From an uncultured Pseudoduganella sp. (GTDB taxonomy: Bacteria > Pseudomonadota > Gammaproteobacteria > Burkholderiales > Burkholderiaceae_D): a stretch of 64,000 nucleotides of DNA. The position numbers were made by a program, and so were the translations under genes. The notes under the pieces were generated by a model that was not told the DNA's origin, did no database searches, and saw only the letters and a program-made list of their open reading frames with translations. The stretch's first letter is position 1. Each line of letters starts with the position of its first letter. The stretch lies in NCBI GenBank assembly GCA_966211685.1, contig CBIHOX010000011.1:7649-71648 (forward strand), read 5' to 3'. Shown here piece by piece: positions 1 to 34,732 of this stretch.

Positions 1-1257
1 GAACAATTCAATATCCTGCGGCAGGTAACCGATGTGCGGGCCCAGCTCGTCCTTGTTCCAGTGGAAGATGTCGGCGCCGTCCAGGCGCACCTTGCCGCTT
101 TGCGCCGGCCAGATGCCCACCATCAGGCGTGCCAAGGTGGATTTGCCGGAACCGCTGGGGCCGATCACGCCCAGCACGTCGCCGGGATTGATGGCGAACG
201 TCAGGTTTTTCAACAACACGGTCTTGGAACCCGGCGGCGCCGCCACCACGGCTTCCACCGACAGCTTGCCGGTCGGCTTTGGCAATTCCATGCCGGCTTC
301 GCGCGGCGGGTTGTCTTTCAACAGCGCGGTCAGGCGTTCGTAAGCGCTGCGGGTGGTGGCATAACTCTTCCAGACAGAAATCACTTGCTGTACCGGCGCC
401 AGCGCGCGGCCCACGAGGATCGACGCGGCAATCATCATGCCCGGGGAAATCTTCGCTTCCAGCACCAGCAGTGCGCCAAAGCCCAGCACCAGCGATTGCA
501 GCGATACTTGCACGAATTTCGTGATGGCGCCCACCAGGCCGGCTTTTTCACTGGCTTCGGCTTGCAGGTGCAGGAATTTGCCGTGCAGTTTGAACCAGCG
601 GTTCATCAGGTTCGGCAGCATGCCCATCGATTCGATGACTTCGGCGTTGCGCAGGTTGTTGGTCGCCAGGTTGCTCGAGGCGATCATCATGGAGTTGGCT
701 TCGCCCAGCGGCTTGCGCGACACGCGTTCATTCACGTACGCCAGCACCACCAGGATGGCCGTGCCGCACAGCGAGAACACGCCCAGGCCCGGTTCGAACA
801 GGAAAATCACGATCAGGTAAATCGGGAACCATGGCGCGTCGAAGAACGCGAACAGCGCGTTACCGGTCAGGAACTGGCGGATGCTTGTCAAGTCCTGCAG
901 CGCCTGGCCGGCGTTGACGCCGCCGCGGCGCAGGTTGTGCTCGAACGCGGCGCTGTACACACGGCGGTTCAGCGCCATGTCGAACTTCGCGCCCACCCGC
1001 ACCAGCACGAAACTGCGGATCAATTCCAACGCCCCCATGAACAGGTACGCGCCCAGCATCATCAGCGTCAGCATCAGCAGCGTGATTTCATTTTGGCTGG
1101 CCAGCACGCGGTCGTATACCTGCAACATGTACAGCGACGGCGTCAGCATCAGCAGGTTGGTGATCGCACTGAACACGCCGACTGTATAAAACGTCTTCTT
1201 GAAAGCACGCAGCACCTGCGCGATTTCATTGTTTGCATCCGCAAATGGATTTTTCAT
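1..1257 (-). CDS. prtD: Type I secretion system ABC permease/ATPase, PrtD/AprD/RsaD family (5' part; runs off the left edge)
   Basis: Translated by hand from ATG at 1257: MKNPFADANNEIAQVLRAFKKTFYTVGVFSAITNLLMLTPSLYMLQVYDRVLASQ..., then FFDAPWFPIY, GRALAPV, Walker A GPSGSGKSTLARL and GYLPQDIELF. Open for 419 codons to the edge; absent from the ORF track because it has no stop in the window. Confidence 0.95.
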   Translation of the reverse strand, partial: MKNPFADANNEIAQVLRAFKKTFYTVGVFSAITNLLMLTPSLYMLQVYDRVLASQNEITLLMLTLMMLGAYLFMGALELIRSFVLVRVGAKFDMALNRRVYSAAFEHNLRRGGVNAGQALQDLTSIRQFLTGNALFAFFDAPWFPIYLIVIFLFEPGLGVFSLCGTAILVVLAYVNERVSRKPLGEANSMMIASSNLATNNLRNAEVIESMGMLPNLMNRWFKLHGKFLHLQAEASEKAGLVGAITKFVQVSLQSLVLGFGALLVLEAKISPGMMIAASILVGRALAPVQQVISVWKSYATTRSAYERLTALLKDNPPREAGMELPKPTGKLSVEAVVAAPPGSKTVLLKNLTFAINPGDVLGVIGPSGSGKSTLARLMVGIWPAQSGKVRLDGADIFHWNKDELGPHIGYLPQDIELF

Positions 1258-1393
1258 GTAATTTATCTTGCAAAGGACATCGGGATACCAGCGGCGATGG
1301 CGCGCGGCGGAGCGCCTGCCATCATCGTTGCAGAGAGGAAATGCGGGCATTTCACATAAGGTCGAGACATTATGCCCGAAAACCGGCAAAGAA

Positions 1394-1409
1394 TGTGATG
1401 TACGTCACA
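1394..1409. promoter_or_regulatory. Perfect CRP-type box TGTGA-TGTACG-TCACA upstream of prtD
   Basis: Sequence aaTGTGAtgtacgTCACAtttt with AT-rich flanks. On the minus strand a -10-like CATAAT (1374-1369) / TAATGT (1372-1367) lies at class II spacing from the box centre. Confidence 0.8.
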
Positions 1410-1483
1410 TTTTTTAGTGCCCGGCGCCCACCAACTTGTTGCAAGTTGTAATTTGGAGTGATTTGTTACTATGCACCAGCCTT

Positions 1484-1568
1484 GTAGGCCGGATTAGCGC
1501 AGCGTAATCCGGCGTCTGGCGCCAGCGCCTGCCACAGCGCCCGCGTGGCGGATCACGATCCGCCACGC
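1484..1568. repeat. GTAG-type REP plus second hairpin (BIME-like unit)
   Basis: GTAGgccggattagcgcagcgtaatccggc (1484-1513) followed by gcgtggcggatcacgatccgccacgc (1543-1568). The whole unit recurs inverted at 35507-35591. Confidence 0.8.
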
Positions 1569-1592: not shown

Positions 1593-4500
1593 TCAGGCAA
1601 CAAACAAATCGTAGCTGACCCCGCCCCCGATGACTGCAGCCAGCGTCTGCTGGTTTTCCGGGCTTTCACTGAACGCGGCCAGCACGTCCGAAACGGGCGC
1701 CAGTTTCTTGTTCAGCACATCCAGCCAGAAGGCATATCCGCCCTGTTCCGGCGCACGGTGCAAAACATTGTTGTACAGGCGCGTGACCAGTTCTTCATTG
1801 GTCGGGCTGGCGCCGTACAGGGCCTTGAATTCCGGCGAATTCACAAAGCCGGCCGCCACCGCGCCTTGCGTGACGCCATTGTCCATCATGGCGATCCAGA
1901 AGCCCAGGCCGGTGGCGTCGGGCGCGCGGTCGAACGCGGCCTGGTACATGCGGTACGCCTGGCCGGCAATACCGCTGGCGTCGGTATCGAACGCCATGGC
2001 GGCCTTGTCGTCGAACACCAGGCGCTCGACATTGGCCAGCACATCCTTGCCGTCCGCGCCTTTGTCCACGGTCAGGCCGCCGTTGCCGTCAGGCAGGACC
2101 GTAAAGGCGCTGCGCGCGCCCTGGTAGCGCACCGTATCGAGTCCGGCGCCGCCGTCGAACACGTCGTTGCCCGCGCTGCCGGCCAGGGTGTCGTTGCCGC
2201 TGCCGGCCAGCAGGTTGTCGCTGCCCGCCGTGCCACTGATCTTGCCGGACTGCACGGCCGGTTCATTGCGCGTGGTGAAATCATACGCATCGGTTGCCAG
2301 GTTGCCGTTGCCGGCCTGGTCGAGAATCACGCCGGCCGGCACCACCAGCTTGTAATGTGTGTTGCTCTTCAATGGCGCCGTCGGGTCGATGGTGACCGTG
2401 CCACCATTGATCGTGATGCGGTCGCTGGTGGCGACGTTGAAGCGTTCCACCAAGGTGCCATTGTCCAGCACGAGGTCGACCATCCCGGCGCCGCGCACGA
2501 CGGGATCGGAAAACACCACGGTGATGTTACTGTTCAGTGCTGCATTGAGCGCGCCATCTTCGGGTGTCACCGAGACCACTTCCAGCCCCTTGGCTTCGGT
2601 GGTGAAGTTGTACGCGTCGGTCGCGTCGATGCCGTTGCCAGCCAGGTCGACCACGGCTCCGGCCGGCACCACCATATGGTAATGCGTGCCCGGCTGCAAG
2701 TTCGCGGAAGGATCGATGGTCACCACGACGCCATTGACTGTCACGCGCTGGCTGGTCGCGATATTGAAGCTTTCCACCACGGTGCCGTCATCGAGCGCCA
2801 GCTGGACGATGCCTGTGCCGCGCTTGACGGGCTCCGAGAAGATCACCGTGATATTGGAATCGACGGCAACATCGGCGGCGCCATTGTCGGGGAAGATCGA
2901 AGACAGGTCGGGGCCCGAACTGTCGTTGTTGGTGACGCTGACCGTATACGCGCCGGTGGTGCTGTTCATGCCGCTGGCCGCCACATAATATGTGCCGCCC
3001 GTGATTGCCTTGTAGGTCAGGCTGGCATTAACACCGCCGCCACCATCGTCATTGCTGTCCATCAAGGAAGCGACATTGTTATACAGGCGCAGCAGTGGAT
3101 CGAGCGTGCTGCCGCTGGCGGCTTTCACGTTGATGGTATAAGTTGCGCCGGCCGCCAGGGTCACCGCGAACCAGTCGCTGTCGCCAACCGCTTCCACGTT
3201 GCCCTGCGCCGTGCCGCCGACGGTGGCCTTGCCGGTGGTGACCGTGCTGGCGGCAAAATCGTCAACCCCGGCCGTCAGCGTGGCCGCCACGGTATAGCCG
3301 CCAGTGCTGCCGTTGAGGTTACCTGCCGAGACGTAATAGGTACCGGCAGCGGTCGCCTTGAACGACAGTTGCGACGAACCATTGAGCCCCCCGTTACCAG
3401 TGGACAACAGCGTGCCGGCGCTGTTGTACAACTTTATCTGCGACGACAGCAGGTTGCCGCTGAACGGCGTCTGGTCGAAGCGGTAAGTCGAGCCCGATGC
3501 CAGTGTCACGGCAAACCAGTCCGTGTCCGCCGAGGTTTCGATTTTGCCGGTCGTGAAGCTGTCAATGGCCAGCTTGCCGGTGGTGGCCGTGGTGGCGGCA
3601 AAATCATCGGCGAAGCCGACCTGGAAGGCCGACACGCGGTAGCTGCCGGTGCTGGTATTGGAAGCGCCGGCCGACACATAGTAAGTGCCGCCCACGGCCG
3701 GCTTGTACGACACTTGCGACGCGCCGCCCTCCGTCGAGGCGCCGGTGGCCAGCAGGCTGCCGAAACTGTTGTAGATTTTCACCTGCGAGCTCAGCGCGCT
3801 GCCGGTGGCCGGGAACTGGTCGAAACGGTAATTCGTGTCGGCCTTGAGGGTAATGGCGAACCAGTCCTTGTCGCCGGACGTTTCCACCTTGCCGGTCACG
3901 CTGCCGTTCACCGCAAGCTTGCCGGTGGTGCCGGTGCCGGCCAGGTAATCATCGACGCCGGCAGCCACTTTGGCGGCCACGCTGTAGCTGCCGATGCTGC
4001 TGTTGAGCGATCCGGCCGACACGAAATACGTGCCGCCGGCAGTCGGGGTATAGGTCAGTTGCGACGCATTGCCGGCCGTGGCCACGCCGGTCGCCAGCAG
4101 GCCGCCAAAGCTGTTATAGATTTTCACCTGCGAGCTCAAGGCGCTGCCGGCGGCCGGCAACTGGTCGAAACGGTAGGTCGTGCCGGCCGTTAAGGCGACG
4201 GCAAACCAGTCCGCATCGCCCGACGTTTCCACCCTGCCTGAAGTGCTGCTGCCCACCGCCAGCTTGCCGGTGGTGCCGATGCCCGCCGCATAATCGTCGG
4301 CCGGGGCGCCCAGCTTGGTGAGGTCGACCACCTTGTCGCTGAACGAGGCGAATTCGATATTGCTCAGGGTATCGGTACCGCCGGCACTGACCACCGTGAA
4401 TTTATTGGTGGTGGGATTGTAGGTAATGGTGGCGCTGGTGGAGGTGCCGCTGAAGGAGGCGGTATCGACGCCCTCGCCGCCGTCCAGCGTATCGTTGCCC

Positions 4501-5564: not shown

Positions 5565-5716
5565 GGTTGTCTCCGGAAGAAAGGCAAGAAGTTTGTCCTG
5601 AACGATGGATTGTACGTGAAATATTACCAACAATCAGTAGCAATATATCCACAGTAACTAAAATTCCACCGCCCTGCCCCGTCCCGTTCTACAGCCCGCT
5701 GCTCTCCGCCAGACTG

Positions 5717-9742: not shown

Positions 9743-9806
9743 GGAAACTCCGCTGAAAGATACTGGCCGGCTAGTAGTTACGCAAAATTTACCGTCAATG
9801 CCTGCT

Positions 9807-9894
9807 GTAGGCGGATTAGCGCGAAGCGCGTAATCCGCCACGCATGCGTGCCCGTGGCCTGCCTGCCGGATTACGCTGCGCTAATCCGGCCTAC
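9807..9894. repeat. Inverted pair of GTAG REPs
   Basis: GTAGgcggattagcgcgaagcgcgtaatccgcc (9807-9839) and gccggattacgctgcgctaatccggcCTAC (9865-9894); the second is the exact reverse complement of 1484-1513. Confidence 0.85.
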
Positions 9895-10004
9895 ATCGCT
9901 TTCCCTGGACGCACACGGGAATTTATGCGCAGCTATTTCGCTGTTGTTGGGCAACATTGTACGCACAAGGCGGGCCCCTGTGCTCGCCGGAATGCGGGGG
10001 TCCG

Positions 10005-12275: not shown

Positions 12276-12308
12276 CGTGAACGGTGTGAGTAAGCGATGC
12301 GGTGTATT

Positions 12309-12797: not shown

Positions 12798-12899
12798 GTA
12801 AAGCCAGTCAGGTGCAGTGCCAAATCATGAAATTATGACAGAACGCACCGGCCGCATGCACCACATGGCATCCCTGCCCCACCATGCATGCCGCAGCGC

Positions 12900-14825: not shown

Positions 14826-14835
14826 GGTGCCTCCA

Positions 14836-14871: not shown

Positions 14872-14875
14872 CTTG

Positions 14876-14903: not shown

Positions 14904-14949
14904 AAGCCGGAATCACAGGAATCGCGGTGGCGATGCGTGCACGCCACCA

Positions 14950-21605: not shown

Positions 21606-24600
21606 TTAAGCGGAGAAGTTGGTCGAGGTCAGCGAGTCAGCGGTCACGCCCGACAGGGTACCGATCAGGTCAACCACGATGTTAGCGGTGGTTGCGTCTG
21701 CGCCGGCAGCGGTCGAGGTTACAGCGTACACGTAGGCGTTGCCGCCGCCGTATGCAACAACCGTCAGGTTGCCCGAAGCGGTGGTGCCCAGGGCGCTGGC
21801 GATCAGGGTTTCAACTGCCAGGCCGTCGCCGACTTGGGTTGGAGCCAGGATCGAACCGGCAGCCGATTCGATCTCGATCACGCCACCGGTTGCCACGGTG
21901 ATTGCCGTGCCAGCTGGGTTGGTTACCGTCTGGAAGGCAGTCACGCCAGCCGATGCCACTTTCAGAACGTCAGCCGACGCGCCGGTTGCGGTGAAGCCGG
22001 TGATGGTGTCAGCGCCGGTGGTGATACCGGTTGCTGCGCCACCAGCCAGCGTGGTCAGCGTGAAGGTATCGGTGCCGGTGCCGGCCGTTGCGGTCTGCGC
22101 GGTGGCAGCGTGGAACGTGAAGTTGTTCGCACCGTTAGCCAGTACGTAGTTTTCCACGTTCACGTTACCCGTTGCGGTGCCGGCCGTCGTGAAGGTGACG
22201 GTTTCGGTACCAGCAGCGTTGATGGTCGTGAAGGCGTTGTGCTGTGCCACGGTCATCGATACGGAACCGCCCGAAGCGATGGTTGCCGTGGTGAAGCCTG
22301 CACCGATGGTAGCGCCAGCAATGTTGGAACCAGTTGCCAGGCTCACGATGTCAGCAGCGGTCACTTCGCCGTTCAGCGTACCGGTGAAGGTGCCGCTCAC
22401 GCCCACGGTTACCACGTCGGTTGCCGCGGTGCCGGTGACGGACTGGGCGCCGGTGATGCCGGTCACGGAGATGGCGTTACCAGCAGCATCGCTCAGGGTG
22501 TAGCTTTCCACGTTGGCGTTCGCTGCCACAGCGGTGATTGCCGTGTCAGTGAAGGTTACGGAGTCAGCACCGCCAGCAGCGTTGATGGTGGTGAAGCCAG
22601 CGTACTGAGCCGAGGTCAGCGACAGGTTGCCGGTCAGGTTCAGCACGGTCGCGCCGGTTACGGCACCAGCGTTCACGCCAGCGATGTTAGCGCCGGTGGT
22701 CGCGGTGATGCTGTCCAGAGCTTGCAGCGTGTAGGTACCGGTGACGGTGTTACCGCCCACGTTCACGGTGTCGGTGCCAGCGGAAACAACGTTCACGCCG
22801 GTATCCGATGCCAGAACCGTGAAGGTACGGCCGTCGGTGCCCAGGTTGTAGGTCTCAACACCAGCTTTACCGGTCACAGCGCCAGCGCCGGACAGGGTCA
22901 CGGTGTTGGCACCGGTTGCGCTCAGGGTGGTGATCGCGTTGTGCTGGGTAGCCGACATCGTTACTGCAGCCAGGCCGTCGATGGTCACGGATTCAGCGGT
23001 CAGCGCTGCGCCGCCGTTGATGCCTGCCAGGTTGGTGCCGGTGGTGGTCACAACCAGCGAGTCAGCAGCGCCGGCCAGAGCCAGGGTGCCGGTCGGGGTG
23101 GTGATCGCGCCGGTGTTCACCGTTACGTTGCCAGCGGCCGACACGTTCTGGGCAGCTGCGCCCAGCGTGAAGTTCGAACCGGTAGCCAGTACGTAGCTTT
23201 CAACAGCTGCGTCGCCAGTGTCGGTCAGAGCCGTGGTCACGGTCACGGTGTTGGTGCCCGTTGCGTTGAAGGTGGTTACAGCAACGTGCTGAGCAGCGGT
23301 CATCGAAACAGCAGCAATGCCGTTGATGGTCACGGTTTCAGCAGTCGTGTCCGCGCCGCCGTTGATGCCAGCCAGGCTGGTACCAGTGGTGGTCACAACC
23401 AGGGTGTCGCCAGCGCCAGCCAGAGCCAGGGTGCCGGTTGGAGCGGTGATCGCGCCGGTGTTCACGGTGACGTTGCCAGCAGCCGACACGTTCTGAGCAG
23501 CTGCGCCCAGGGTGAAGGTGGAGCCGGTTTGCACGGTGTACGACTCGATAGCTGCGTTACCGGTCAGGGTAGCAACATCGCTGATGGTCACGGATTGTGC
23601 GCCGGTAGCGGTGAAGCTGGTAGCAGCAGCCAGCGTGTCGAACTGAGCCTTCGTTGCGGTCAGGGCCAGGCCAGCAGCCAAGGTCACGGTGTTGAAGCCG
23701 GTCAGGTTGCCGATGGTCGAGGTGCCGCTGATGGTCAGCGTGTCGGTTGGCAGGGTTGCCGCGGCGTTGACTGCGCCGGTGGTGACGCCATCCTTGAACA
23801 CGTTGTTGGTCGCGTTCGCGGTGAAGTCCACGGTGTACGAGCTGCCCAGGGTGCCAACTTCGAAGTCAGCTTGTGCCAGCGATGCTGGGCTGTTCGACAG
23901 GTTCAGCTGGATGTCGTTCGCGTTCAGCGCGCCGTCGTTGTTGACGTCGATCCACAGGGTGTGGGTGGCGGTATCCAGAACGGCGTCGATGGTGCCGCCA
24001 GCCGAGATCGCGCCTTGAGCTGCGCCGAACGAGCTGTATGCGCCAACGTAGGTGACTGCGCTGGTGTACACGATCTTGTCGGTGCCCGATACGAAGTCGG
24101 TGATGGTGTCAGCATTGTCCGCGCCAACGTCGCTTGCCACGATGTAGAAGCGGTCGGTGCCGGTGCCACCGGTCAGCACGTCTTTGCCAGCGCCGCCCAG
24201 GATCGAGTCGTTGCCTGCGCCACCGATGATGGTGTCGACTTTCGCGCCGCCCAGGATGCGGTCAGCACCTGCGCCGCCGGTTACGCTGTACGAACCGTCC
24301 AGTTCAGCGGTACCAACGAAGTTGAAGGCAGCAGCAGCGTTGGTCAGCGCGGATGCGTCGACGTTCAGCGTTTTGCCAGCTTCCAGGTTGCTGTTCACGG
24401 TGGTGATCGATACGCCGTTGGCGCCGTTGGCTTCAACGAACACGTTTTCGATCTTCGTTACGCCGTTCAGGTTGGCAACTGCGTTGTCAGCAACAACTAC
24501 CAGCTTGTCACCGGTGTTGGTGCCGCCGGTGATCACGTCGGTGCCCGACAGCGAAGCTGCGGTCGAACGTACGGTCATCAGGCCGGTTGCCAGGCTTGCG

Positions 24601-27600
24601 TTGACGGTGTCGTTGCCGCCGGCGCCCAGGTTGATGGTCAGGTTGCTGGAGAAGCCTTCACCCACGTTCACGCTGTCGTCGCCCGTGCCAACGGTGATGT
24701 CTTTCAGGCCGTTCTTGTTGGCGATCGCGTTCACGTTGATGGTGTTGTTGCCGTTGCTCAGCACCAGGTTTTCAACGGAATCCCAGTTGTTGAAGATAGC
24801 GTCGTTCAGGACTGCGGCATCCGTCGTGATCTTGACGGTGTCGGTACCTGCGCCACCTTTCACGGTGTCGGCCGAAGTGATGCCTTCGGTTGCGACAACA
24901 GCGCTGTAGGTGAAGTTGAAGGTGTCGTCGCCGGCACCGCCATCCAGGTAATCAACGCCTTCCACGCCGGAAACTGCGCCGGTACCAGCGGTGATGGTGT
25001 CGTTGCCGTCGCCGCCAACGATCGAATCGTCGCCGTTGCCGCCGATGATCACGTCGTTGCCTGCACCGCCGGTGATGGTGTCTTTACCAGCAGCGGTGGT
25101 CACGGTCCAGCCGCCTGCGCCTACAGTGATCTTGCCGTTTGCGCCGCCGGTCAGGGTGACGGAGCCAGCGCCAGCGCCGGTGGTCACGGTGTGGGTTGCG
25201 GTCGAGCCAGCAGCCGAGTTCAGGGTGATGACGTCTGCGCCCGAGCCCGAGTTCACGGTGAAGGTGCCGGTGCTGGTGCCATTGCCCAGGGTGATGGTGT
25301 CAACGCCGGTGCCGCTGTTCACGGTCACGGATTGTGCAGCAGCAGCGGTCGCTGCGAACGACACGCCGCCCGACAGAGCGGTTGCGTCAACGGTAGCCAG
25401 CTTGGTCGAGCCGATGGCTGCGGTGATGACAACCTTGTCTTCGCCCGACAGGGTCAGCTTGGTCAGGTTGGCGCCATCCAGCGAAGCCGCGGTGATGGTT
25501 TCAACGGTGTTGCCTACGGCGCCGTTGTTGGCGTCTTTGGCGGTCACGGTGACGTTTTCAGCCTGGCTGAACAGCAGCGCGCCGGTCGCGTAGTTAGCGG
25601 TGTCGGTGGTCAGGTTCAGGGTCAGGTTGTCAGCTGCCGTGTCGGTAGCGTGGGTCACGGTCAGGTTGTCCGCGCCAGCGAAGCCGGTGGTTGCTGCACG
25701 GGCGTTCACGTTCACCACCACGTTGTTGGCAACGTTGTTCAGGGCAACAGCGCCATTGGTGCCGTTGTCGAACGAGAAGGTGTTGATCACGTGATCGGTG
25801 CTGCCCGAAGCCTTGGTGCCGCCGTTGCCTGCATCCAGAACACCAGACGTTGCGTCGGTGAAGGTCAGGTTTTCAACGTTGGTGGTGTTGGCGAACGTAT
25901 CGGCGTCAACAGTAACGCTTGCAATGGTGGTGGTCGACACGGTGTCGGTGCCGGTGCCGCCGTTGACGGTGTCGCTATTGCGGTAGTTTGCACCCAGCTT
26001 GATGGTATCGTCGCCGGCGCCGGCGTTCACGTTGGACTTGCCTACGTTAGCCGATACGTCCAGCGTGTCGCTGCCCGAACCGGAGGTTACCGACAGAGCG
26101 GTGCCAGCCAGGGTCACGTAGTTGCCCGAGGTGATGTTCAGGTTGCCGGTGAAGGCGCCTGCATCGATGGTGCCCACGGTGCCGTTCAGGCCAGCGGTGA
26201 TGGTCAGGTTCTGGTTACCAGCGATGGTGACTTTCGAAGCGTCCACGTTCAGCGCGCCGACGACCGATGCTGCGCCGCTGGTGGTGATGGCCACGGTTTC
26301 GATGCCGGTGTTGCCAGCGCCAACCAGTGCGTCGGTGTTGGTACCGATCTTGATGGTGCCGGTGCTGTTACCGTTCAGCAGGATCTTCTGGGTGTCGGCT
26401 GCGCCAGCAACAGCGGCAGCTTTGTAAGCCAGGGTCAGGTCGGAAGCGTTCAGTGCGTTAGCAACTTCCAGGTCAACGATCTGGCCGATGTTTTTCACGG
26501 TCAGGTTGTTGTTCGAGGACGACGAACGAACGGTCTTCAGTGCGGAGTCAACGTTTTCCAGGCCCAGGATGGTCGCGCCTTCAGCTGCTGGAGCTTGAGC
26601 TTGAACTTCCAGAACTTCGATGTTTTTCACGACGAAGCCTTGTACCTGGCTTGCGTTGGTGATGGCAGCGTTGTTGGTGGACGAGGTAACCACGCGCAGG
26701 GTGTCGGTGCCCACGCCGCCGTCGATCGAGTCGGACGATTGCAGGGTGGTGGATTGACCGGTCTGGCCGATGATGGTGTCATCGTTCAGGCCAGCGATGA
26801 CCACGTCGGTTGCGCTGATGGTCAGGGCCTTGCTCTGTGGGCCGGCTTCAACAACGGCGTCTTGAGCAACTTTCTGGTGAGCAGCAACCAGCAGTTGAGC
26901 AGCAACCAGCGGATCGTTGATGGCTTTGATGGCGGCAGCGGTAGCGGCCGAAGCAACGTCGTCAGCGGTCGACTTGGTGGTGCCTACAACAGCGGCGAAG
27001 TCAGCAGCGGCGGTGTTAGCAACAACAACGCTGGCCAGTGCTTTTTCGATCGCGGTTTTTTCGTTGGTGGCAGCGGTAGCCAGAGCCGTGGCGTTGGCAA
27101 CGGATTTGGACAGGTCGAATGCAGCTTTCGCGTCAACGTACGCTTTGGTTGCTGCAGCGGCAGCGTCAGCGTCGGTCTTGGCGGTAGCCAGTGCCGTGGT
27201 GTAAGCACCTTTCTTGGCATCGGAGATCGCTTGAGCAGCAGCTTCAACAGCGTCTTCACCAGCTTTGATGGCGTCGTCAACAACGGTCTTGGCAGCGGCA
27301 GCAGCGGTCACAACGGTGTTAGCGTTGGTCACGGCGGTAGCGGCAGCGGTGTTGTCAGCGGCGTTGACGGTCTTGTCAGCGGCAGCTTTCAGTGCGTCAG
27401 CAGCGGTCTTGGCATCGGCAGCGGCGGCAACAGCGGCGTCTGCAGCGGTCTTCGCGTTGGCGATGGTGGTCGGCACCTTGGCGACAGCAGCGGCTGCGTC
27501 GGCGATGGTCTTGTTGCCAGCGGTCAGGTTGGCGGCAGCGGTGTTCGAAGCAGCCAGCTTGGTGGCGGCGTCTTGCTGTGCTTTAGCCAGGTTGAAGTCG

Positions 27601-28928
27601 GCAACCGACTTGGTCGCGCCGGTAGCAGCGATTTCGTCAGTGTTACCACCAGCAACGGCAGCGTTGTACGCGTCGGTAGCAGCTTTGGCATCGGCTTGTG
27701 CGGTGGTCAGCACGCCTTGGGCTGCGTCGGATGCGGCTTTGGCATCGTTTGCTGCGGTGGTCAGAGCGGCAACGTCAACAGCGGCAGCGGCCGTTTTCAG
27801 GGCAGCGGCAGCGTCTTGGTCGATCTTGATCTGGGCAGCAGCGGTGGTAGCAGCAGCGGCCTTGGCGGTAGCGTTGGCGTTAGCGGTGGTAACGGCAGCT
27901 TGTGCGTCGATCACGGCTTGCACCAGTGGCTTCTCAGCAACAGCAGCGGCTACGTGGGCAGCAGCGTCGGTCACCAGCTTGGCAGCAGCGGTCTGAGCAG
28001 CAGCAGCGTCTGCAACAGCTTTGATTGCCAGCGCGTCGTCAGCGGTGGTGGCGGTTTTCAGTGCTTTGGCCAGGTAGTTGTCGGCAGCGGCTTTCGCGGT
28101 GTCGGCAGCGGTCTTGGCAGCGTCGGCAGCAGCTTTCTCGGTGTCGGCAGCGGTCTTGGCAGCGTCAACCTTGGCGATGGTGTCCGAACCTTCCAGGGCA
28201 ACTTTAGCAGCTGCGGCAGCGGTAGCGGCGGTAGCGGCAGCGGTGGCGGCAGCGGTTACTGGCGCGGTCAGGGCGGCGGCAGCCAGGTTCGCGTCGAACT
28301 CGGCAGCAGCGTTGGCGTCGTAGGTGCGCAGCACTTCGTTGGTCACCAGTGCCAGGGCAGCAGGTGCGGTAGCAGCAGCCAGCGAGGCAGCGTCCTTAAC
28401 CGAGTTCAGGAACGACGTACCCCATGCGTTTGCCTGTGGGCCGCTGTAAGCCAGTTGCAGGGCAACGCTGTCAGCGATTTTTGCGGTGAACGCGGTAGCA
28501 GCAGCCAGCTTGCTTGCAACGGTTTCAACGTCTTGGCCTTTTGCGTTCGAGAACATCGTGTTCAGCGTGAAGCTGACAGCTTGCGCTTTGACTTCGGCTT
28601 TCTCAGCAGCGGTCAGTTTCGTGTTGGCGGCGTTGGCGGCATCAACACTGTTCAGGTAGTCGGTGTAGAAGTTCAGGCCTTCCTGGTCCGGCAGACGACC
28701 GAACGAGTTCTGGTACATCTTGGCAACCAGTTGCTGGTTGCTCAGTTTCGGCGTTACATAGATCGCCTTGTACTCTTCGTTGTTGGCAAAGAAGTTTGCC
28801 ACGGCTTTCATGTCGATCTTGTTTGCAGCCAGCAGATCTTCCCAAAACTTCAAACCGGCTGGGTCAGCGGGACGGTTGTAGTAAGCGATATACAGTTTTT
28901 GCAGATCGGAGGTGTACTGTGTTGCCAT
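21606..28928 (-). CDS. Giant S-layer-like T1SS substrate (2440 aa): N-terminal SapA/DUF4214-type domain, ~490-aa Ala-rich stalk, Thr/Gly/Asn-rich beta-helix region with RTX motifs
   Basis: N-terminus DLQKLYIAYYNRPADPAGLKFW...NQQLVAKMYQNSFGRLPDQEGLNFY. Many GGxGxD motifs, no signal peptide, RBS AGGAG, high-expression codon bias, and adjacency to sapC and a T1SS gene. Confidence 0.85.
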   Translation of the reverse strand: MATQYTSDLQKLYIAYYNRPADPAGLKFWEDLLAANKIDMKAVANFFANNEEYKAIYVTPKLSNQQLVAKMYQNSFGRLPDQEGLNFYTDYLNSVDAANAANTKLTAAEKAEVKAQAVSFTLNTMFSNAKGQDVETVASKLAAATAFTAKIADSVALQLAYSGPQANAWGTSFLNSVKDAASLAAATAPAALALVTNEVLRTYDANAAAEFDANLAAAALTAPVTAAATAAATAATAAAAAKVALEGSDTIAKVDAAKTAADTEKAAADAAKTAADTAKAAADNYLAKALKTATTADDALAIKAVADAAAAQTAAAKLVTDAAAHVAAAVAEKPLVQAVIDAQAAVTTANANATAKAAAATTAAAQIKIDQDAAAALKTAAAAVDVAALTTAANDAKAASDAAQGVLTTAQADAKAATDAYNAAVAGGNTDEIAATGATKSVADFNLAKAQQDAATKLAASNTAAANLTAGNKTIADAAAAVAKVPTTIANAKTAADAAVAAAADAKTAADALKAAADKTVNAADNTAAATAVTNANTVVTAAAAAKTVVDDAIKAGEDAVEAAAQAISDAKKGAYTTALATAKTDADAAAAATKAYVDAKAAFDLSKSVANATALATAATNEKTAIEKALASVVVANTAAADFAAVVGTTKSTADDVASAATAAAIKAINDPLVAAQLLVAAHQKVAQDAVVEAGPQSKALTISATDVVIAGLNDDTIIGQTGQSTTLQSSDSIDGGVGTDTLRVVTSSTNNAAITNASQVQGFVVKNIEVLEVQAQAPAAEGATILGLENVDSALKTVRSSSSNNNLTVKNIGQIVDLEVANALNASDLTLAYKAAAVAGAADTQKILLNGNSTGTIKIGTNTDALVGAGNTGIETVAITTSGAASVVGALNVDASKVTIAGNQNLTITAGLNGTVGTIDAGAFTGNLNITSGNYVTLAGTALSVTSGSGSDTLDVSANVGKSNVNAGAGDDTIKLGANYRNSDTVNGGTGTDTVSTTTIASVTVDADTFANTTNVENLTFTDATSGVLDAGNGGTKASGSTDHVINTFSFDNGTNGAVALNNVANNVVVNVNARAATTGFAGADNLTVTHATDTAADNLTLNLTTDTANYATGALLFSQAENVTVTAKDANNGAVGNTVETITAASLDGANLTKLTLSGEDKVVITAAIGSTKLATVDATALSGGVSFAATAAAAQSVTVNSGTGVDTITLGNGTSTGTFTVNSGSGADVITLNSAAGSTATHTVTTGAGAGSVTLTGGANGKITVGAGGWTVTTAAGKDTITGGAGNDVIIGGNGDDSIVGGDGNDTITAGTGAVSGVEGVDYLDGGAGDDTFNFTYSAVVATEGITSADTVKGGAGTDTVKITTDAAVLNDAIFNNWDSVENLVLSNGNNTINVNAIANKNGLKDITVGTGDDSVNVGEGFSSNLTINLGAGGNDTVNASLATGLMTVRSTAASLSGTDVITGGTNTGDKLVVVADNAVANLNGVTKIENVFVEANGANGVSITTVNSNLEAGKTLNVDASALTNAAAAFNFVGTAELDGSYSVTGGAGADRILGGAKVDTIIGGAGNDSILGGAGKDVLTGGTGTDRFYIVASDVGADNADTITDFVSGTDKIVYTSAVTYVGAYSSFGAAQGAISAGGTIDAVLDTATHTLWIDVNNDGALNANDIQLNLSNSPASLAQADFEVGTLGSSYTVDFTANATNNVFKDGVTTGAVNAAATLPTDTLTISGTSTIGNLTGFNTVTLAAGLALTATKAQFDTLAAATSFTATGAQSVTISDVATLTGNAAIESYTVQTGSTFTLGAAAQNVSAAGNVTVNTGAITAPTGTLALAGAGDTLVVTTTGTSLAGINGGADTTAETVTINGIAAVSMTAAQHVAVTTFNATGTNTVTVTTALTDTGDAAVESYVLATGSNFTLGAAAQNVSAAGNVTVNTGAITTPTGTLALAGAADSLVVTTTGTNLAGINGGAALTAESVTIDGLAAVTMSATQHNAITTLSATGANTVTLSGAGAVTGKAGVETYNLGTDGRTFTVLASDTGVNVVSAGTDTVNVGGNTVTGTYTLQALDSITATTGANIAGVNAGAVTGATVLNLTGNLSLTSAQYAGFTTINAAGGADSVTFTDTAITAVAANANVESYTLSDAAGNAISVTGITGAQSVTGTAATDVVTVGVSGTFTGTLNGEVTAADIVSLATGSNIAGATIGAGFTTATIASGGSVSMTVAQHNAFTTINAAGTETVTFTTAGTATGNVNVENYVLANGANNFTFHAATAQTATAGTGTDTFTLTTLAGGAATGITTGADTITGFTATGASADVLKVASAGVTAFQTVTNPAGTAITVATGGVIEIESAAGSILAPTQVGDGLAVETLIASALGTTASGNLTVVAYGGGNAYVYAVTSTAAGADATTANIVVDLIGTLSGVTADSLTSTNFSA

Positions 28929-29029
28929 TTAAAGGGCTCCTAAGGGATTCATTGAAAGTCAATATTGCAGGGGCTCAAACCCGCTACAACCCAACGTACC
29001 GAATACTCGCAGATGGATTTGCGTACTAA

Positions 29030-29045
29030 TGTGACGGTCATCACA
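29030..29045. promoter_or_regulatory. Perfect CRP-type box TGTGA-CGGTCA-TCACA upstream of the S-layer gene
   Basis: taaTGTGAcggtcaTCACAaaa. With the centre set at -41.5, the minus strand gives an extended -10 TG-C-GAGTAT at 29011-29003. Confidence 0.85.
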
Positions 29046-29369: not shown

Positions 29370-30782
29370 TCACTTGGGCTTGGTCCAATACGTGGCGCCT
29401 TCCGTGGTGCGGGCCGCATCGAGACGCCCCTGGAACAGGTAGGCCGCAGTGCCCCCATTCTCCGAACTCAACACCCCTGTCACATTGACATTGCTGTTGT
29501 TGTTGTAACGTGGCGACTCTCCATAGAAGCGGCCATCGCTCCCCACCGTGCCGCTGGAACGCATGTTGAAACGCTCGGCCTGCGCCACCAGGTCAAAACT
29601 GGTGGTGTACGTTTTTTGGTCAAAATTGAAATTCAATACACCGTTTTCCACTTTGGCCACTTCCGCCGGCGTGAAACTGTCGCGCAAAATATACGCTTCA
29701 CTGTCTTTCAAGGTGAAACCAGCTGAACTGCGTTCCGGTATTTGATAATCGGCGCCCGGCGTGCGGAACAAGGCAAAGTTGCCTTTCATGTCCACCAGCT
29801 CCGCACCGCTCTTCAGCATGGCGACCAGGTCCACCTTGGCGGTTTTATCGAGCAACGGTTGCCAGCGTCCCCAGACGATCTTCCGCTCAGGCTGCGGCGG
29901 TTCAGGCGGCGTCACCACGGGCGGGTCCACCACCGGCGGCGTCACCACCGGCGGGACCACCACCACCCCGCCGCCCGTGTCGGGTTTTTCCAGCACTGGC
30001 GGCACGGTAACGATCGGGTCCGGAGTCGTCGTTGGCGGCTGCTGCACCACTTGCGCCACGCGCTGCTTCAACTCCTGGTCTTTTTTTGCTTCCAGGCTGG
30101 GTTCCGGCGGCCCGCCCGCCATGCCGCCTTTAGGTTCATCCGTGCGTGGCGGCGCCACCACATCCGGCGCCAAAGTGCCAGACGGCAACAATTGTGGCGC
30201 CGCCTGGCCGCGGCGCACCTGCAACAGCAGGCCGCGCTGCGCGGCGGACAATTCACGGCTGGCCTTGCCTTCGCATGGGCCGGTACCGTCCGGGCTGCAC
30301 GCGCCGGCAAATCCACTAATAGTAATACCGCCAGACAGCACGGTGACCCGGGTTACTTCCTGGTCGGCCGACACGGCGAAATCCGTCCCACGCACCCCAA
30401 TGGCCGCCACCGGCGTATTGAAACGGAAATTCTGGCGCGCCTGCTTGACGGCTTCGCCGGACTGGCTGCGCGCCACCCCTTCCAGCAATTCCAGCTTGAT
30501 GCGGGTATTGGCCGGGTTGGCGGCGTCGATGTGGTAATTGACGATGCGGGCCTTGCTCGACGGCCGGACAATGAACAGGCCGTTGTCGATGGTTTTCACA
30601 TACACATAGCCATCGCCTCCGGTGACCAGCATATCCCCTTCCCGCACCACGCCGTTCAATTCGGCGGCGCGGTCGGCGACCTTGACCTGGCCTGCGACAA
30701 AAATGATTTTCCCGGCATCGGCCGCGAAGGCTGTTGCGCCCCACAAGCCGAGCCCGACGATAGCTAATAGATTACGCAACAT
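29370..30782 (-). CDS. Exported FecR-domain protein with Pro-rich linker and C-terminal beta-rich domain
   Basis: Signal peptide MLRNLLAIVGLGLWGATAFA, FecR-type ...FRFNTPVAAIGVRGTDFAV...VTVLSGGI, linker PVVTPPVVDPPVVTPPEPPQPE, alternating aromatic/polar strands at the C-terminus. Confidence 0.85.
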   Translation of the reverse strand: MLRNLLAIVGLGLWGATAFAADAGKIIFVAGQVKVADRAAELNGVVREGDMLVTGGDGYVYVKTIDNGLFIVRPSSKARIVNYHIDAANPANTRIKLELLEGVARSQSGEAVKQARQNFRFNTPVAAIGVRGTDFAVSADQEVTRVTVLSGGITISGFAGACSPDGTGPCEGKASRELSAAQRGLLLQVRRGQAAPQLLPSGTLAPDVVAPPRTDEPKGGMAGGPPEPSLEAKKDQELKQRVAQVVQQPPTTTPDPIVTVPPVLEKPDTGGGVVVVPPVVTPPVVDPPVVTPPEPPQPERKIVWGRWQPLLDKTAKVDLVAMLKSGAELVDMKGNFALFRTPGADYQIPERSSAGFTLKDSEAYILRDSFTPAEVAKVENGVLNFNFDQKTYTTSFDLVAQAERFNMRSSGTVGSDGRFYGESPRYNNNSNVNVTGVLSSENGGTAAYLFQGRLDAARTTEGATYWTKPK

Positions 30783-30867: not shown

Positions 30868-30967
30868 ATCACAAGCTGCAGGGGCGGATCGCGGTCCGCC
30901 GTTGCTTGAGGGTCTGCAGGCGGCCTTCCCCTGTTACCGTAATTATCCCTGTGGATACACAAGTTAC

Positions 30968-30983
30968 AGTGACGACCATCACA
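30968..30983. promoter_or_regulatory. Near-perfect CRP-type box AGTGA-CGACCA-TCACA in the fecR/cyclase divergent region
   Basis: 9/10 consensus match. GATAAT on the minus strand (30947-30942) lies at class II distance, facing the FecR-domain gene. Confidence 0.7.
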
Positions 30984-31128: not shown

Positions 31129-33066
31129 TTGTTGAGTTTTACGGCATTGTCCACGTGGCGTTCCTTTTTCCGTATACCGGCCATCCCGGCGCATGCGGTG
31201 CTGGCCGCGATCGGGCTGGCTGCCGTGCTGTTGACCGCGGCCGCCCAGTGGGGCATGCCGGCCGGCGCCACCTTCCCCGCCGATGAATGGCTGCGCGACC
31301 GCATCCTGCGCCTGCGCAGCGCGCCCACGCCGGAGCCGCGCATCCTGGTGGTCGATATCGATGAAGCCAGCCTGGCAGAAGTAGGCGCCTGGCCGTGGCC
31401 GCGCGAGCGGCTGGCCACTTTGGCGGAAATCCTGCTGACCCATTACGAAGCACGCGGCGTGGCCTTCGATATCCTGCTGCCCACGGCCGGCGATCCGCAG
31501 GGCGACCAGCGCCTGATGATGCTGGCGGCGCATGGGCCGCTGGTGCTGGCGCAGGCATTCGATTATCCGGAAGCCCAGCGCCAGCCGCTGCGCGCCGGAC
31601 AGCTCGGCGGCGCCCGCCCCGGCCGCGGCACGGCCCAGCTGGAAGCTTCCGGCTACATCGCCAACCACCCGCAATTCGCTAATGCGCGCAATATCGGCAA
31701 CATCGGCTTCCTGCCCGATGCCGATGGCGCGCTGCGCCGCGTGCCGCTGCTCACCAGTTTCAATGGCGCGCTGTATCCTTCGCTGTCGCTGGCGCTGCTC
31801 GATTGCTGCAGCGGCGGCCCCAAACTCGTGGTGACGGACCCGGCGCCGTTGCGGGTGGATTTCCAGCGCGACTGGAATGCCTATACCGTGGTCAGCGCCG
31901 CCGACATCCTCGACGAACGCATTGCCCCCGAGAGCGCTTCCGGCCGCCTGGTGCTGGTCGGCTCCTCGTCGATGGGCACCGGCGACCGCGTGACCACACC
32001 ATTGGCGCGCAACCGCCCCGGCCTCGGCGTGCAGGCCGCCGTGCTGTCGACCATCCTGGACCGCCAGCAAGGACTGGCGCCCCGCCCCTGGCCGGGCCGC
32101 CTGATCGCCTGCGTGTTTACCGCCATCGTGGCGCTGGTGAGCGTGTGGAGTTTCCCGCGCCTGTCCGCCATGGCCAGCGTCAGCCTGCTCGGCGCCGGCA
32201 TGGCGGCGTGGCTGGGCGTGGCGTGGGTGGTGTTGCCGCACGACGACGCCATGGTCAGCAGCGCCCCGCTGGCCAGTTGCCTGTTCTTGCTGGCGTTTGC
32301 CATTCCTTACCAGTGGCACGTCAGCCAGCGCCGTTCGCGCCGCCTGCTCGATACCCTGCGCCAATATGTGGCGCCCGCCGTCGTGACGGAACTGTTGCGC
32401 AGCGACATGGCCGATCCCTTGCAGCCGCGCCTGCTCGACGTCACCACCCTGATTGCCGACCTGCAGGGTTACACGTCGCACGTGGAAGCGCTGCCGCTCG
32501 ATGAAGCCGCGGAATTGACCAGCAGTTTCCTCGATTGCCTCACCGCCCCCGTGATTGAACAGCAGGGCACCTTGGATAAATATACCGGCGACGGCTTGGT
32601 GGCATTCTGGGGTGCGCCGTTGCCCAATGATAACCATGCTGATTTGGCATTGGACGCGGCACGTGATATTGTAGCCAGAGTGCAACAATTGAGCGCCCAG
32701 CGCCGTGCCGCCGGCTTCCCGCCGCTGCGGGTGCGGATCGGCATTGAAAGCGGCCCCGCCATGGCGGGCGATTTCGGCAGCGTGTTCCGCAGCGTGTATA
32801 CCGCGGTCGGCGACAGTGTGAACACGGCGGCGCGCCTGGAGCAGGCCGCCAGGGATTTCCCGCACGACGTCATCATTGGCGCCGGTACAGCACAACGCAC
32901 GCGCCGCCACCGGCTCATGTTGCTGGGCGAACGGCAATTACGCGGCAAAGATAAACCAACCATTCTTTATACGTTTGACAGCAGCATGGATGTCTCCCTC
33001 ACCAACGGCCTCACTGGCGCCAGCCAGGCTGCCGCCACGCCGGCAAAGGCAGCGTTTACTGCATGA
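31129..33066 (+). CDS. CHASE2-domain class III adenylate cyclase (start codon uncertain)
   Basis: N-terminal TM, CHASE2 motifs ILVVDIDEASL...GAWPWPRERLA...FDILLP...D.DGALRR, three TMs, cyclase motifs LIADLQGYT, DKYTGDGLVAFWG and YTAVGDSVNTAARLE. Both Asp residues, the ATP-specifying Lys/Thr and the Asn/Arg are present. Confidence 0.92.
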   Translation: MLSFTALSTWRSFFRIPAIPAHAVLAAIGLAAVLLTAAAQWGMPAGATFPADEWLRDRILRLRSAPTPEPRILVVDIDEASLAEVGAWPWPRERLATLAEILLTHYEARGVAFDILLPTAGDPQGDQRLMMLAAHGPLVLAQAFDYPEAQRQPLRAGQLGGARPGRGTAQLEASGYIANHPQFANARNIGNIGFLPDADGALRRVPLLTSFNGALYPSLSLALLDCCSGGPKLVVTDPAPLRVDFQRDWNAYTVVSAADILDERIAPESASGRLVLVGSSSMGTGDRVTTPLARNRPGLGVQAAVLSTILDRQQGLAPRPWPGRLIACVFTAIVALVSVWSFPRLSAMASVSLLGAGMAAWLGVAWVVLPHDDAMVSSAPLASCLFLLAFAIPYQWHVSQRRSRRLLDTLRQYVAPAVVTELLRSDMADPLQPRLLDVTTLIADLQGYTSHVEALPLDEAAELTSSFLDCLTAPVIEQQGTLDKYTGDGLVAFWGAPLPNDNHADLALDAARDIVARVQQLSAQRRAAGFPPLRVRIGIESGPAMAGDFGSVFRSVYTAVGDSVNTAARLEQAARDFPHDVIIGAGTAQRTRRHRLMLLGERQLRGKDKPTILYTFDSSMDVSLTNGLTGASQAAATPAKAAFTA

Positions 33067-34325
33067 CGCATCGCCTTGCCCTGACAGCCTGGCTGCTGGC
33101 CATGGCCGCGCTGCCGGCCGCGGCGCAGGACGCCCCCCGGGAGCCCGCGCCGCCGCTGCCCGTGGTGGAAATACCCGGTCCGCACCAGCAGGATTGGTAC
33201 CAGGCCGCGCTGCAGTCGATTGCCGAGGGCCGCAAGCATGACGCCAGCGCGGAACTGGAGCGTGTCATCCGCAATGAACCGCTGCACGCCGGCGCCTGGC
33301 TGGACCTGGCGCTGATCCAGTGCAGCCTGGGCCACGCCGAGGAAGCCTTCCGCCTGTTCGGTATCATCGAGGAGCGCTTCAAGCCGCCGCCGGCATTCCT
33401 GGAATTGATCGCCAGTTACCGCCAGCAGGGATGCGACCGGTGGGAAGTGCAAAGCCAGGCCAGCCTCACGCTGGCGCGCGGCATCGACCAGAACGTCAAC
33501 CAGGGCCCGAGCGCCAGCAGTTACTCGGTCGGCACCGCCGCGCTCAGCGTGGAATATCCGGTGTCGCCGGAATTCAGGCCGAAACACGACCAGTATACGT
33601 CGCTGTCCGGCGATTATCTGCGCGACCTTACCAGCAATGGCACGGTCGGCATCGTGCAATTCCAGTTCCGGCGCAATGATGAATTGAAACAATATGACAA
33701 TGCATCGCTGTTCGGCAGCGTCGAGTCGCCGTGGCGCCTGGGCAACTTCAGCGGCCGCCATGTCGGCACGGCCGGCCTGCTGACACTGGGCGGCCACCTG
33801 TACCAGCGCCAGGCCCAGTTGCAGGAGCGCGTCACGGTACCCCTGCCCGGCAAGGTGCAATTGACGATGATGACCAGCATGACGCGCCTGAATTACGTCA
33901 CGTTGAACAATTTCGATTCCAGCACGGCGGAACTGCGCGGCGTGCTCAGTTACAGTGCCGGCGCCGGCAGCGTGCGCGCCGCCATCAGCCTGCTCAATGA
34001 CCATGCGATGGCCGACCGCCCCGGCGGCAACCGCCATGGCCAGGTGCGCTCGGTGTTGTTCCGCCAGAACCTGGGCATGCGCATCACGGGCGAACTCGGC
34101 TACACCGACCAAACCTGGCAAAGCGCCACCGCATATGCGCCGGGCGCACTGGACATCATCCGGCAGCAGCGCACGCAATCGCTGACGGCCAGCCTGTTTT
34201 ACCCGATCGGCAAGAACCAGATGGTGCAGCTGGAAGCGCGGAAAGTACGAAATCAGGAAAACATTCCGATCTTTCAGTACAATAATCGGCAGTTACAGCT
34301 AAGTTGGCAGTGGCAGGGTTTGTGA
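33063..34325 (+). CDS. Exported TPR plus outer-membrane beta-barrel protein (Slam/NsrA-like architecture)
   Basis: Signal peptide, TPR-like helices (EPLHAGAWLDLALIQCSLGHAEEA), amphipathic beta strands ending QLQLSWQWQGL. ATGA overlap with the cyclase stop. Confidence 0.75.
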   Translation: MTHRLALTAWLLAMAALPAAAQDAPREPAPPLPVVEIPGPHQQDWYQAALQSIAEGRKHDASAELERVIRNEPLHAGAWLDLALIQCSLGHAEEAFRLFGIIEERFKPPPAFLELIASYRQQGCDRWEVQSQASLTLARGIDQNVNQGPSASSYSVGTAALSVEYPVSPEFRPKHDQYTSLSGDYLRDLTSNGTVGIVQFQFRRNDELKQYDNASLFGSVESPWRLGNFSGRHVGTAGLLTLGGHLYQRQAQLQERVTVPLPGKVQLTMMTSMTRLNYVTLNNFDSSTAELRGVLSYSAGAGSVRAAISLLNDHAMADRPGGNRHGQVRSVLFRQNLGMRITGELGYTDQTWQSATAYAPGALDIIRQQRTQSLTASLFYPIGKNQMVQLEARKVRNQENIPIFQYNNRQLQLSWQWQGL

Positions 34326-34334: not shown

Positions 34335-34679
34335 ATGGCAAATGAAATTTGGGGTATCGCTTTACTGGTTGGTATCCTGGGCCTGTCGGCCGGTTGCCTG
34401 GTCCCCAACCGGTGGTTGCCTGCCCGCATGCCCAACGATAAGTTGATGCATTTCGTCGCGTTTGCCGTCCTGGCCGGAGTGGCCATGCAAATCGCACAAA
34501 CCCGTATCGAAGCGGCCTGGTGGATGCTGGGCTTGCTGGTGGCGGGTTGGATAATTGAATGTCTGCAACAATTGCTGCCGGACCGCGGCTTCAGCTGGCG
34601 CGACATTGCCGCCAACGCGGCCGGCATCGTATTTGCCGCCGGCTGTACCCTGGCCTACCAAAGCCTGCCGATTTCGTGA
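34335..34679 (+). CDS. VanZ-like small membrane protein
   Basis: NDKLMHFVAFAVLA...IECLQQLLPDRGFSWRDIAANAAGI, a VanZ-like pattern. Confidence 0.8.
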   Translation: MANEIWGIALLVGILGLSAGCLVPNRWLPARMPNDKLMHFVAFAVLAGVAMQIAQTRIEAAWWMLGLLVAGWIIECLQQLLPDRGFSWRDIAANAAGIVFAAGCTLAYQSLPIS

Positions 34680-34732
34680 CGCAGATCACACGATACTGCT
34701 CGACTGACGCCGCTCCATGAGATAATCACTGC

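Follow-up and report, generated by a model that had tools for sequence, protein, structure and literature searches.

The subject of this analysis is a palindrome of the type bound by the cyclic AMP (cAMP) receptor protein CRP, TGTGA-N6-TCACA, that lies upstream of a type I secretion system (T1SS) operon in an uncultured Pseudoduganella sp. (assembly GCA_966211685.1). It was found in a stretch of 64,000 nt, here called the window, which spans positions 7649 to 71648 of contig CBIHOX010000011.1 (C11). The window opens within an ATP-binding cassette (ABC) gene of the PrtD type, the start codon of which is backed by relatives whose alignments start at residue 1. Genes for an HlyD-family adaptor (TIGR01843, 393 vs. 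a cut-off of 209) and a TolC-family channel (TIGR01844, 324 vs. 225) are contiguous with it (C11:4321-8905), and with ABC protein, adaptor and channel in one operon the system is a T1SS of the PrtD/PrtE/PrtF type. The palindrome before this operon is called box A; a second one, box B, precedes the gene of a giant RTX protein, the presumed T1SS cargo, and an imperfect third, box C, lies between divergent genes for a FecR-domain protein and a CHASE2 adenylate cyclase. Further genes of the same cluster encode a TPR-containing protein and a Crp-family regulator, here called P0001 (Table 1).

CRP-type boxes in the promoter regions of exporter and cargo genes

The first-pass annotation of the window had reported a perfect box approximately 140 nt upstream of the prtD-like gene and a second one 27.6 kb away, and both reports proved correct. 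The centre of box A (1401.5) lies 144.5 nt 5′ of the ABC gene ATG (1257, minus strand), and on the gene strand the box with its flanks reads AAAAAA-TGTGACGTACATCACA-TTCTTT. Box B is located 27,636 bp from box A and is centred 109.5 nt 5′ of the ATG of the cargo gene. We scanned the whole assembly (6.39 Mb, 64.7% GC, 308 contigs) and found that these two, both in promoter regions of one cluster, are the only perfect TGTGA-N6-TCACA sites in the genome, while a reversed-pattern control returned none. The annotation had also named an abundance of perfect boxes in the random intergenic DNA of this genome as grounds for discarding its reading, and the genome-wide count shows no such abundance. A search that allowed up to one mismatch gave 41 sites in the genome, of which a crude coding mask places 29 in intergenic DNA; the two one-mismatch sites of the window, box C and a site before the regulator gene, are both intergenic and belong to the same cluster as boxes A and B.

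On its other side, box A faces the end (1593) of a protease gene, which is followed by a strong hairpin that parts it from the ABC promoter, so that the T1SS operon is the only possible target of box A. Downstream of the box on the gene strand, the hexamer CATAAT lies at a distance of 19 nt and the overlapping TAATGT at 21 nt; with the −10 hexamer set at −12 to −7, the box is centred at −39.5 for CATAAT and at −41.5 for TAATGT. In Escherichia coli, class II promoters that depend on CRP or FNR, such as galP1 and melR, carry the CRP site centred at −41.5. The spacing recurs among relatives, as [G/C/T]ATAAT stands exactly 19 nt past the box in 23 of 26 orthologous ABC promoters, and the box-anchored consensus of these promoters is aaAAatTGTGAtG..cATCACATtTttt...g.ttTTgag.gATAATgTc. 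With their AAA...TTT flanks, the ABC boxes match the CRP consensus over its 22 bp. Between 1150 and 1700, no sigma-70 promoter combining a −35 with a −10 element was detected. The fixed spacing and the missing sigma-70 promoter thus support the class II distance that had been claimed for CATAAT/TAATGT, and the box A promoter is predicted to be built like those that depend on a class II activator, with the box in the place of the −35 element. At box B the predicted −10 hexamer likewise puts the box centre at −41.5, the cargo promoters of relatives carry CATnAT 21 to 22 nt past the box, and next to box C a GATAAT hexamer (30947..30942) lies 20 nt off on the FecR side.

Table 1. Positions of the boxes, genes and predicted elements (window coordinates, except in the last row, which gives genome, contig and positions)
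Feature	Position	Strand	Remarks
PrtD-type T1SS ABC gene, 5′ part	1..1257	minus	TIGR01842, 549 bits vs. cut-off of 510 though truncated by the window edge
Predicted transcription start, ABC operon	1360..1362	minus	from spacing; box centre at −41.5 to −39.5
Predicted −10 region CATAATGT	1367..1374	minus	CATAAT 1374..1369; TAATGT 1372..1367
Box A, TGTGATGTACGTCACA	1394..1409	none	perfect 16-bp CRP-type palindrome TGTGA-N6-TCACA
REP-like palindrome GTAGGCCGGATTAGCGCAGCGTAATCCGGC	1484..1513	none	core CCGGATTA...TAATCCGG
Hairpin, 12-bp stem	1543..1568	minus	just 3′ of the protease stop codon; parts protease gene from ABC promoter; fold of 1410-1600, z = −3.8
Five serralysin-like RTX/DUF4214 protease genes	1593-5633, 5717-9841, 10005-12275, 12900-14825, 14950-19290	minus	between cargo and exporter
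RTX protein gene	21606..28928	minus	2440 aa, N-terminal DUF4214; presumed T1SS cargo
Predicted cargo-promoter −10, GAGTAT	29003..29008	minus	21 nt past box B; box centre at −41.5
Box B, TGTGACGGTCATCACA	29030..29045	none	perfect palindrome
FecR-domain protein gene	29370..30782	minus	PF04773; matches LipL45/Lsa33-like FecR lipoproteins
Box C, AGTGACGACCATCACA	30968..30983	none	one mismatch; FecR-like/cyclase divergent region
CHASE2 and class III adenylate cyclase gene	31129..33066	plus	PF05226, 2e-44; divergent from FecR-like gene
TPR-containing protein gene	33063..34325	plus	420 aa; weak TPR_16 match, signal-peptide-like N-terminus, conserved synteny
VanZ-like open reading frame	34335..34679		
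One-mismatch site CGTGACGCAGATCACA	34675..34690	none	overlaps stop codon of the VanZ-like frame; 43 nt before regulator ATG
Crp-family regulator gene, P0001	34733..35485	plus	cNMP_binding PF00027, 5e-20; HTH_Crp_2 PF13545, 9e-17; recognition helix SRETVTR
Box pairs in genomes without P0001	G128:C42:92476/92513; G070:C19:234517/234554; G161:C67:47129/47166; G130:C1:2433912/2434002		

Conservation of the boxes and the regulator encoded beside them

Orthologues of P0001 (66-86% identity) are present in 20 of 24 sampled genomes of the same genus and also in named Massilia, Duganella, Pseudoduganella, Rugamonas, Noviherbaspirillum and Undibacterium genomes. Comparison of 67 named loci with 10-kb flanks revealed a recurrent layout, in which an ABC gene and an RTX/DUF4214 cargo gene are each preceded by a box, a further box separates a FecR-like gene from a divergent CHASE2 cyclase gene, and the latter is followed by TPR, Crp-like and Wzm genes, with others in between. 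Upstream of the orthologous ABC gene, the box was found in all 25 related Oxalobacteraceae loci, in every case as a perfect palindrome 87 to 169 nt from the ATG, and it keeps its place although the surrounding sequence diverges. The cargo gene is preceded by a box in 37 of 38 loci (all perfect), and the FecR/cyclase divergent region contains one in 57 of 57 (31 perfect and 26 with one mismatch). Judged by this conservation, box A is a real, conserved control site.

The boxes also go together with the regulator. Across 41 genomes of the genus, perfect boxes cluster 4 to 20 kb from the regulator gene, as in G013 (boxes at 1273059, 1276879 and 1278525; gene at 1281924) and in G008, G004, G002, G010, G017, G019, G022 and G023. 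Six genomes of the genus lack the regulator: four of them (G001, G011, G014 and G020) contain no perfect box, and the remaining two (G152 and G179) contain two each, located on different contigs, with atypical spacers and in no case clustered. In G001, G011 and G014 no ABC orthologue is present either, and the whole island is missing. In G020, which has neither the regulator nor the cyclase orthologue, the ABC orthologue is kept (77% identity) and its box has decayed to TGTGAATTTTCATTGA. At this locus (C210, locus L105, 1400-1500) one half-site is left and CATAAT stands closer. On the scale of the family, 29 of 151 genomes, from 17 of 64 genera, encode the regulator and average 3.3 perfect boxes (reversed-pattern control, 0.55), and the 122 genomes without it average 1.1 (control, 0.72).

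P0001 combines an N-terminal cNMP-binding domain with a C-terminal HTH of the Crp type. Its residues R213, E214 and R218 align with R180, E181 and R185 of CRP and are invariant in the orthologues examined. The recognition helix NLPTHQDIANMINTSRETVTR is identical in 19 orthologues from the genus, two loci (L024 and L025) differ by one or two substitutions upstream of NMINTSRETVTR, and a 13-sequence alignment shows no variation at any of these helix positions other than I205. Besides P0001, at least six Crp/Fnr-like proteins are encoded in the genome, and P0001 is the sole paralogue with an R-E-x3-R helix, the others having FNR-type (E-SR) or unrelated helices. In the nucleotide-binding pocket, G108, E109, R118, S119 and S164 correspond to G71, E72, R82, S83 and S128 of CRP. 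The best solved relatives of P0001 are the cAMP-binding CRPs of Thermus, Corynebacterium (GlxR), Mycobacterium and E. coli. The loop that aligns with activating region 3 (AR3) of CRP is acidic (T90-E91-D92-G93-R94) and conserved, and would be compatible with class II activation. Based on these data, the most likely binder of boxes A, B and C is predicted to be P0001, the gene of which lies 33 kb from box A.

The regulator is not the global CRP. Its best NCBIfam match is the CRP equivalog NF008732, at 80 bits against a cut-off of 266 bits, and a search of the genome, approximately 9% of which is unassembled, yielded no CRP orthologue, the best tblastn matches to E. coli CRP being 27% identical. 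The earlier attribution of exporter control to Crp was therefore right as to the type of box and wrong as to the protein, if a global cAMP-CRP was meant; the local P0001 is the likely controller.

The cyclase encoded next to box C matches Spirulina CyaC (1wc0/1wc1, E = 2e-26), and in the alignment its catalytic residues are all retained (two Asp that bind metal, the Lys/Thr pair for the substrate, Asn and Arg). With this catalytic set intact, it is expected to be an active adenylate cyclase.

Proposed mechanism and competing explanations

Collectively, these data lead us to propose, with a probability of roughly 80%, that box A is the operator of a class II-type T1SS promoter and is read by the cluster-encoded, cAMP-responsive Crp-family regulator, which would co-activate pump, cargo and FecR-like gene. 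According to this model, the membrane-bound CHASE2 cyclase would make cAMP in response to an envelope or extracellular cue, probably together with the exported FecR-domain protein and the TPR protein, and cAMP would load P0001. The regulator dimer would then bind three operators, those of the T1SS operon (A), the giant RTX/DUF4214 cargo (B) and the FecR-like gene (C), and from a position near −41.5, with the box replacing the −35 element, would recruit RNA polymerase. Through this shared recruitment at boxes A and B, the cell would make pump and cargo together, and the sensor gene would receive feedback. That P0001 binds the boxes, that it activates and does not repress, and that its ligand is cAMP supplied by the neighbouring cyclase are inferences, as is the nature of the signal.

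Several observations weigh against this proposal. Composition predicts approximately 2.1 perfect boxes genome-wide and 0.4 to 0.5 in intergenic DNA (approximately 0.87 Mb, called by a crude mask based on third-position GC content), so that with two observed the over-representation is weak. The first-pass claim that two perfect boxes are unlikely by chance applies to the window, where dinucleotide shuffles gave an expectation of 0.02 boxes and none of 100 shuffles contained two or more, and not to the genome as a whole. Taking CATAAT as the −10 hexamer puts box A at −39.5, and the canonical −41.5 needs the weaker TAATGT or a longer discriminator. The adenine-contacting T127 of CRP is replaced by Asp163 in P0001, and the ligand could therefore be cyclic GMP (cGMP) or another molecule. 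Four other class III cyclases are encoded in the genome and could add to the input from the local one, and cross-talk is possible. G020 is only 89% complete and its missing regulator may be an assembly gap; moreover, related genomes are not statistically independent, and the co-occurrence figures are descriptive and do not constitute a test.

Since the raw box count is only mildly above chance, the case is built on where the boxes lie and how well they are conserved. These two points decide against a functionless palindrome arisen by chance in AT-rich intergenic DNA: although composition alone predicts about two perfect boxes per genome, the conservation of a perfect box at the same place in 25 of 25 species amid diverging sequence effectively refutes this explanation, and neither the fixed spacing to the −10 hexamer nor the empty reversed-pattern control is what chance would leave. 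A functional site could in principle serve a global E. coli-type cAMP-CRP and tie secretion to carbon status, as the 10/10 match to the E. coli consensus and the AAA/TTT flanks might suggest; with no CRP orthologue found, with both perfect boxes of the genome being local and with boxes accompanying the local regulator across genomes, we consider this extremely improbable. That the palindrome is read by a non-Crp protein or by one of the other Crp/Fnr paralogues, of which the genome has no shortage, is very improbable as well, given that none of these paralogues has the R-E-x3-R helix and that box clusters occur only where a P0001 orthologue is present.

The only rival with real weight keeps P0001 and its boxes and differs in the sign of regulation or in the ligand. 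If the regulator acted as a repressor, or responded to cGMP or to no ligand, exporter and cargo would be co-repressed or otherwise signalled. The box does overlap the −35 region, and a protein sitting on it could also block RNA polymerase; yet no recognisable −35 element or complete sigma-70 promoter in need of repression is present, the fixed class II-type spacing between box and −10 is typical of activation, and the acidic AR3-like loop is conserved. Regarding the ligand, the replacement of T127 by Asp and the activation of Sinorhizobium meliloti Clr by cAMP and cGMP alike (PMC10127613) leave room for an alternative, whereas the Lys/Thr pair of the cyclase is that of adenylate cyclases. We regard this explanation as unlikely, and cAMP-dependent co-activation by P0001 as the preferred one.

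The surrounding cluster and known systems

The genes between exporter and cargo include, apart from the five proteases, those for a GT4 glycosyltransferase and for a homologue of SapC (PF07277), also on the minus strand and situated between the proteases and the cargo gene. None of these inserted genes (1593-21467) has a box of its own: no box with up to two mismatches precedes any of the five protease genes, and a search 5′ of the protease genes, sapC or wzm gave no site with at most one mismatch, the only one nearby having two mismatches (21473). The 27.6-kb distance between boxes A and B compares with 2 to 6 kb in relatives, in which mostly one cargo gene lies between, and is due to the large 7.3-kb cargo gene and to the inserted protease, glycosyltransferase and SapC genes. 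The core of the repetitive extragenic palindrome (REP)-like element near box A, CCGGATTA...TAATCCGG, gives 56 strand-hits, or approximately 28 copies, genome-wide; REP-like elements (GTAGGCCGGATTA-N-TAATCCGGC) occur at 1484-1513 and 30838-30867, in both box-bearing intergenic regions.

On the other side of the cluster, the TPR protein is suspected to adopt an outer-membrane barrel fold. The one-mismatch site before the regulator gene was considered as a means of autoregulation and rejected: it lies 30 nt from a GATAAT hexamer, off the class I and class II registers, and in 19 relatives no site with at most one mismatch comes closer than 1.5 kb to the regulator gene. The function of this site is thus doubtful. 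Downstream of the regulator (35780-49560), the window encodes Wzm and Wzt (the latter with a C-terminal carbohydrate-binding domain), an FkbM methyltransferase, a 1506-residue triple GT4 protein, a GT2 protein and two DUF7024 proteins. Such an O-polysaccharide-type export locus accompanies the module in most relatives, and wzm adjoins the regulator gene in most loci.

Elsewhere in the genome, a second Crp/Fnr-family gene (helix RRESITAACGKL) is found approximately 2 kb from another class III cyclase gene (contig C25:24175-26788), and the pair may be a second local cyclic-nucleotide module. A wider regulon was sought and not found in the source genome, as the sites with at most one mismatch beyond the cluster lack a coherent gene context. 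Three of them, with one mismatch each, lie on contig C6 at 48375, 56978 and 63633, spread over approximately 15 kb, and have similar spacers (TGTGACGAAAGTCACT, TGTGACGATCGTAACA and TGTGACAAAAGTCACG); no clear gene context was seen for them. Distant P0001 homologues from other phyla (24-34% identity) were likewise set aside, as they lack the FecR/CHASE2/T1SS neighbourhood. In other genera of the family, where no P0001 orthologue is seen at E ≤ 1e-60, perfect CRP-type boxes occur in pairs with a spacing of 37 bp (or 90 bp), which hints at a different Crp-type regulon there.

The proposed system shares with E. coli class II CRP promoters the 16-bp TGTGA-N6-TCACA operator with AAA/TTT flanks, the predicted substitution of the box for the −35 element and the fixed distance to the −10 hexamer, and P0001 retains R180/E181/R185 and the G71/E72/R82/S83 pocket in CRP numbering. 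It differs from E. coli CRP in its low identity (27%, with a score below the equivalog cut-off), in a shortened activating region 1 loop and in the Asp at the position of T127. The regulon differs too, being local (three operators in one cluster) and belonging to a betaproteobacterial host that lacks a global CRP.

RTX S-layer proteins exported by a T1SS are represented by Caulobacter RsaA with RsaDEF and by Campylobacter fetus SapA with SapCDEF. As in these systems, the RTX cargo of the window lies beside a dedicated ABC/adaptor/outer-membrane exporter, and a SapC homologue (PF07277) and O-antigen-type Wzm/Wzt and glycosyltransferase genes are adjacent; unlike in them, five protease paralogues are placed between cargo and pump, and the cargo is without a match to solved S-layer proteins. 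We know of no described cyclic-nucleotide or Crp control of systems of the RsaA/SapA type, and the literature searched held none. RTX systems have been reviewed (PMC3034196). A comparison of the cargo with solved structures (PDB) returned RTX repeats only and no sequence match to S-layer proteins. The SapC neighbour, DUF4214, the T1SS and the O-antigen genes fit the RTX S-layer type, which is circumstantial, and it is from these that we infer a possible S-layer identity of the RTX/DUF4214 cargo. The first-pass proposal that exporter and S-layer are co-activated is thus supported in one part, the shared Crp-type control seen in the perfect boxes of 25/25 ABC and 37/38 cargo loci, while activation stays a prediction and the name S-layer goes beyond the RTX repeats that the cargo matches.

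The closest described system is the S. meliloti cascade that runs from the CHASE2 cyclases CyaD1, CyaD2 and CyaK through NsrA to Clr (PMC5498481, PMC13001267, PMC7529298, PMC10127613). In both, CHASE2 class III cyclases feed a Crp-family regulator, in our case by prediction. Sensing in S. meliloti involves an outer-membrane component (PMC5498481, PMC13001267, PMC7529298, PMC10127613). The FecR-domain gene smc02177 is a Clr target with a Clr box, in parallel to box C before the FecR-like gene here, and a TPR protein gene is also a target (PMC5498481; PMC13001267; PMC7529298). In contrast, the Clr operator is TGTTN8AACA (relaxed form HGTYHCNNNNGRWACA; PMC5498481) and not TGTGA-N6-TCACA, and Clr integrates many cyclases and controls a wider regulon, targeting infection-control genes and succinoglycan rather than a T1SS and RTX cargo. 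P0001 scores 57 bits against Clr (7pza), the same as against E. coli CAP, and does not qualify as a Clr orthologue; NsrA, with approximately 1200 residues, is also far larger than the 420-residue TPR protein. The literature searched yielded no paper that describes the conserved FecR/CHASE2/Crp module, nor any in which Crp or cAMP governs T1SS or S-layer genes of Oxalobacteraceae.

For annotation, the locus advises caution, as even where CRP is lacking a perfect "CRP box" can be the site of a local, island-encoded Crp paralogue. For the biology of the organism, a single dedicated cyclic-nucleotide switch appears to govern both T1SS and cargo, in place of constitutive expression or global catabolite control. 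In a broader reading, to which we lean only somewhat, the E. coli-type CRP operator would have a single use in Oxalobacteraceae, namely to serve a mobile, self-contained envelope-to-cAMP island with its own FecR protein, CHASE2 cyclase, TPR/outer-membrane protein and Crp, whose three operators would switch on a surface-coat programme upon an external cue; in the present genome this programme would comprise the giant RTX/DUF4214 protein, the T1SS and the DUF4214-tagged proteases. With three operators, one regulator and one adjacent cyclase, the cluster would be a tractable system for asking what CHASE2/FecR envelope sensors detect and, if the proposal is true, so tight a regulon would provide a clean natural reporter for finding the ligand of the CHASE2/FecR sensor.

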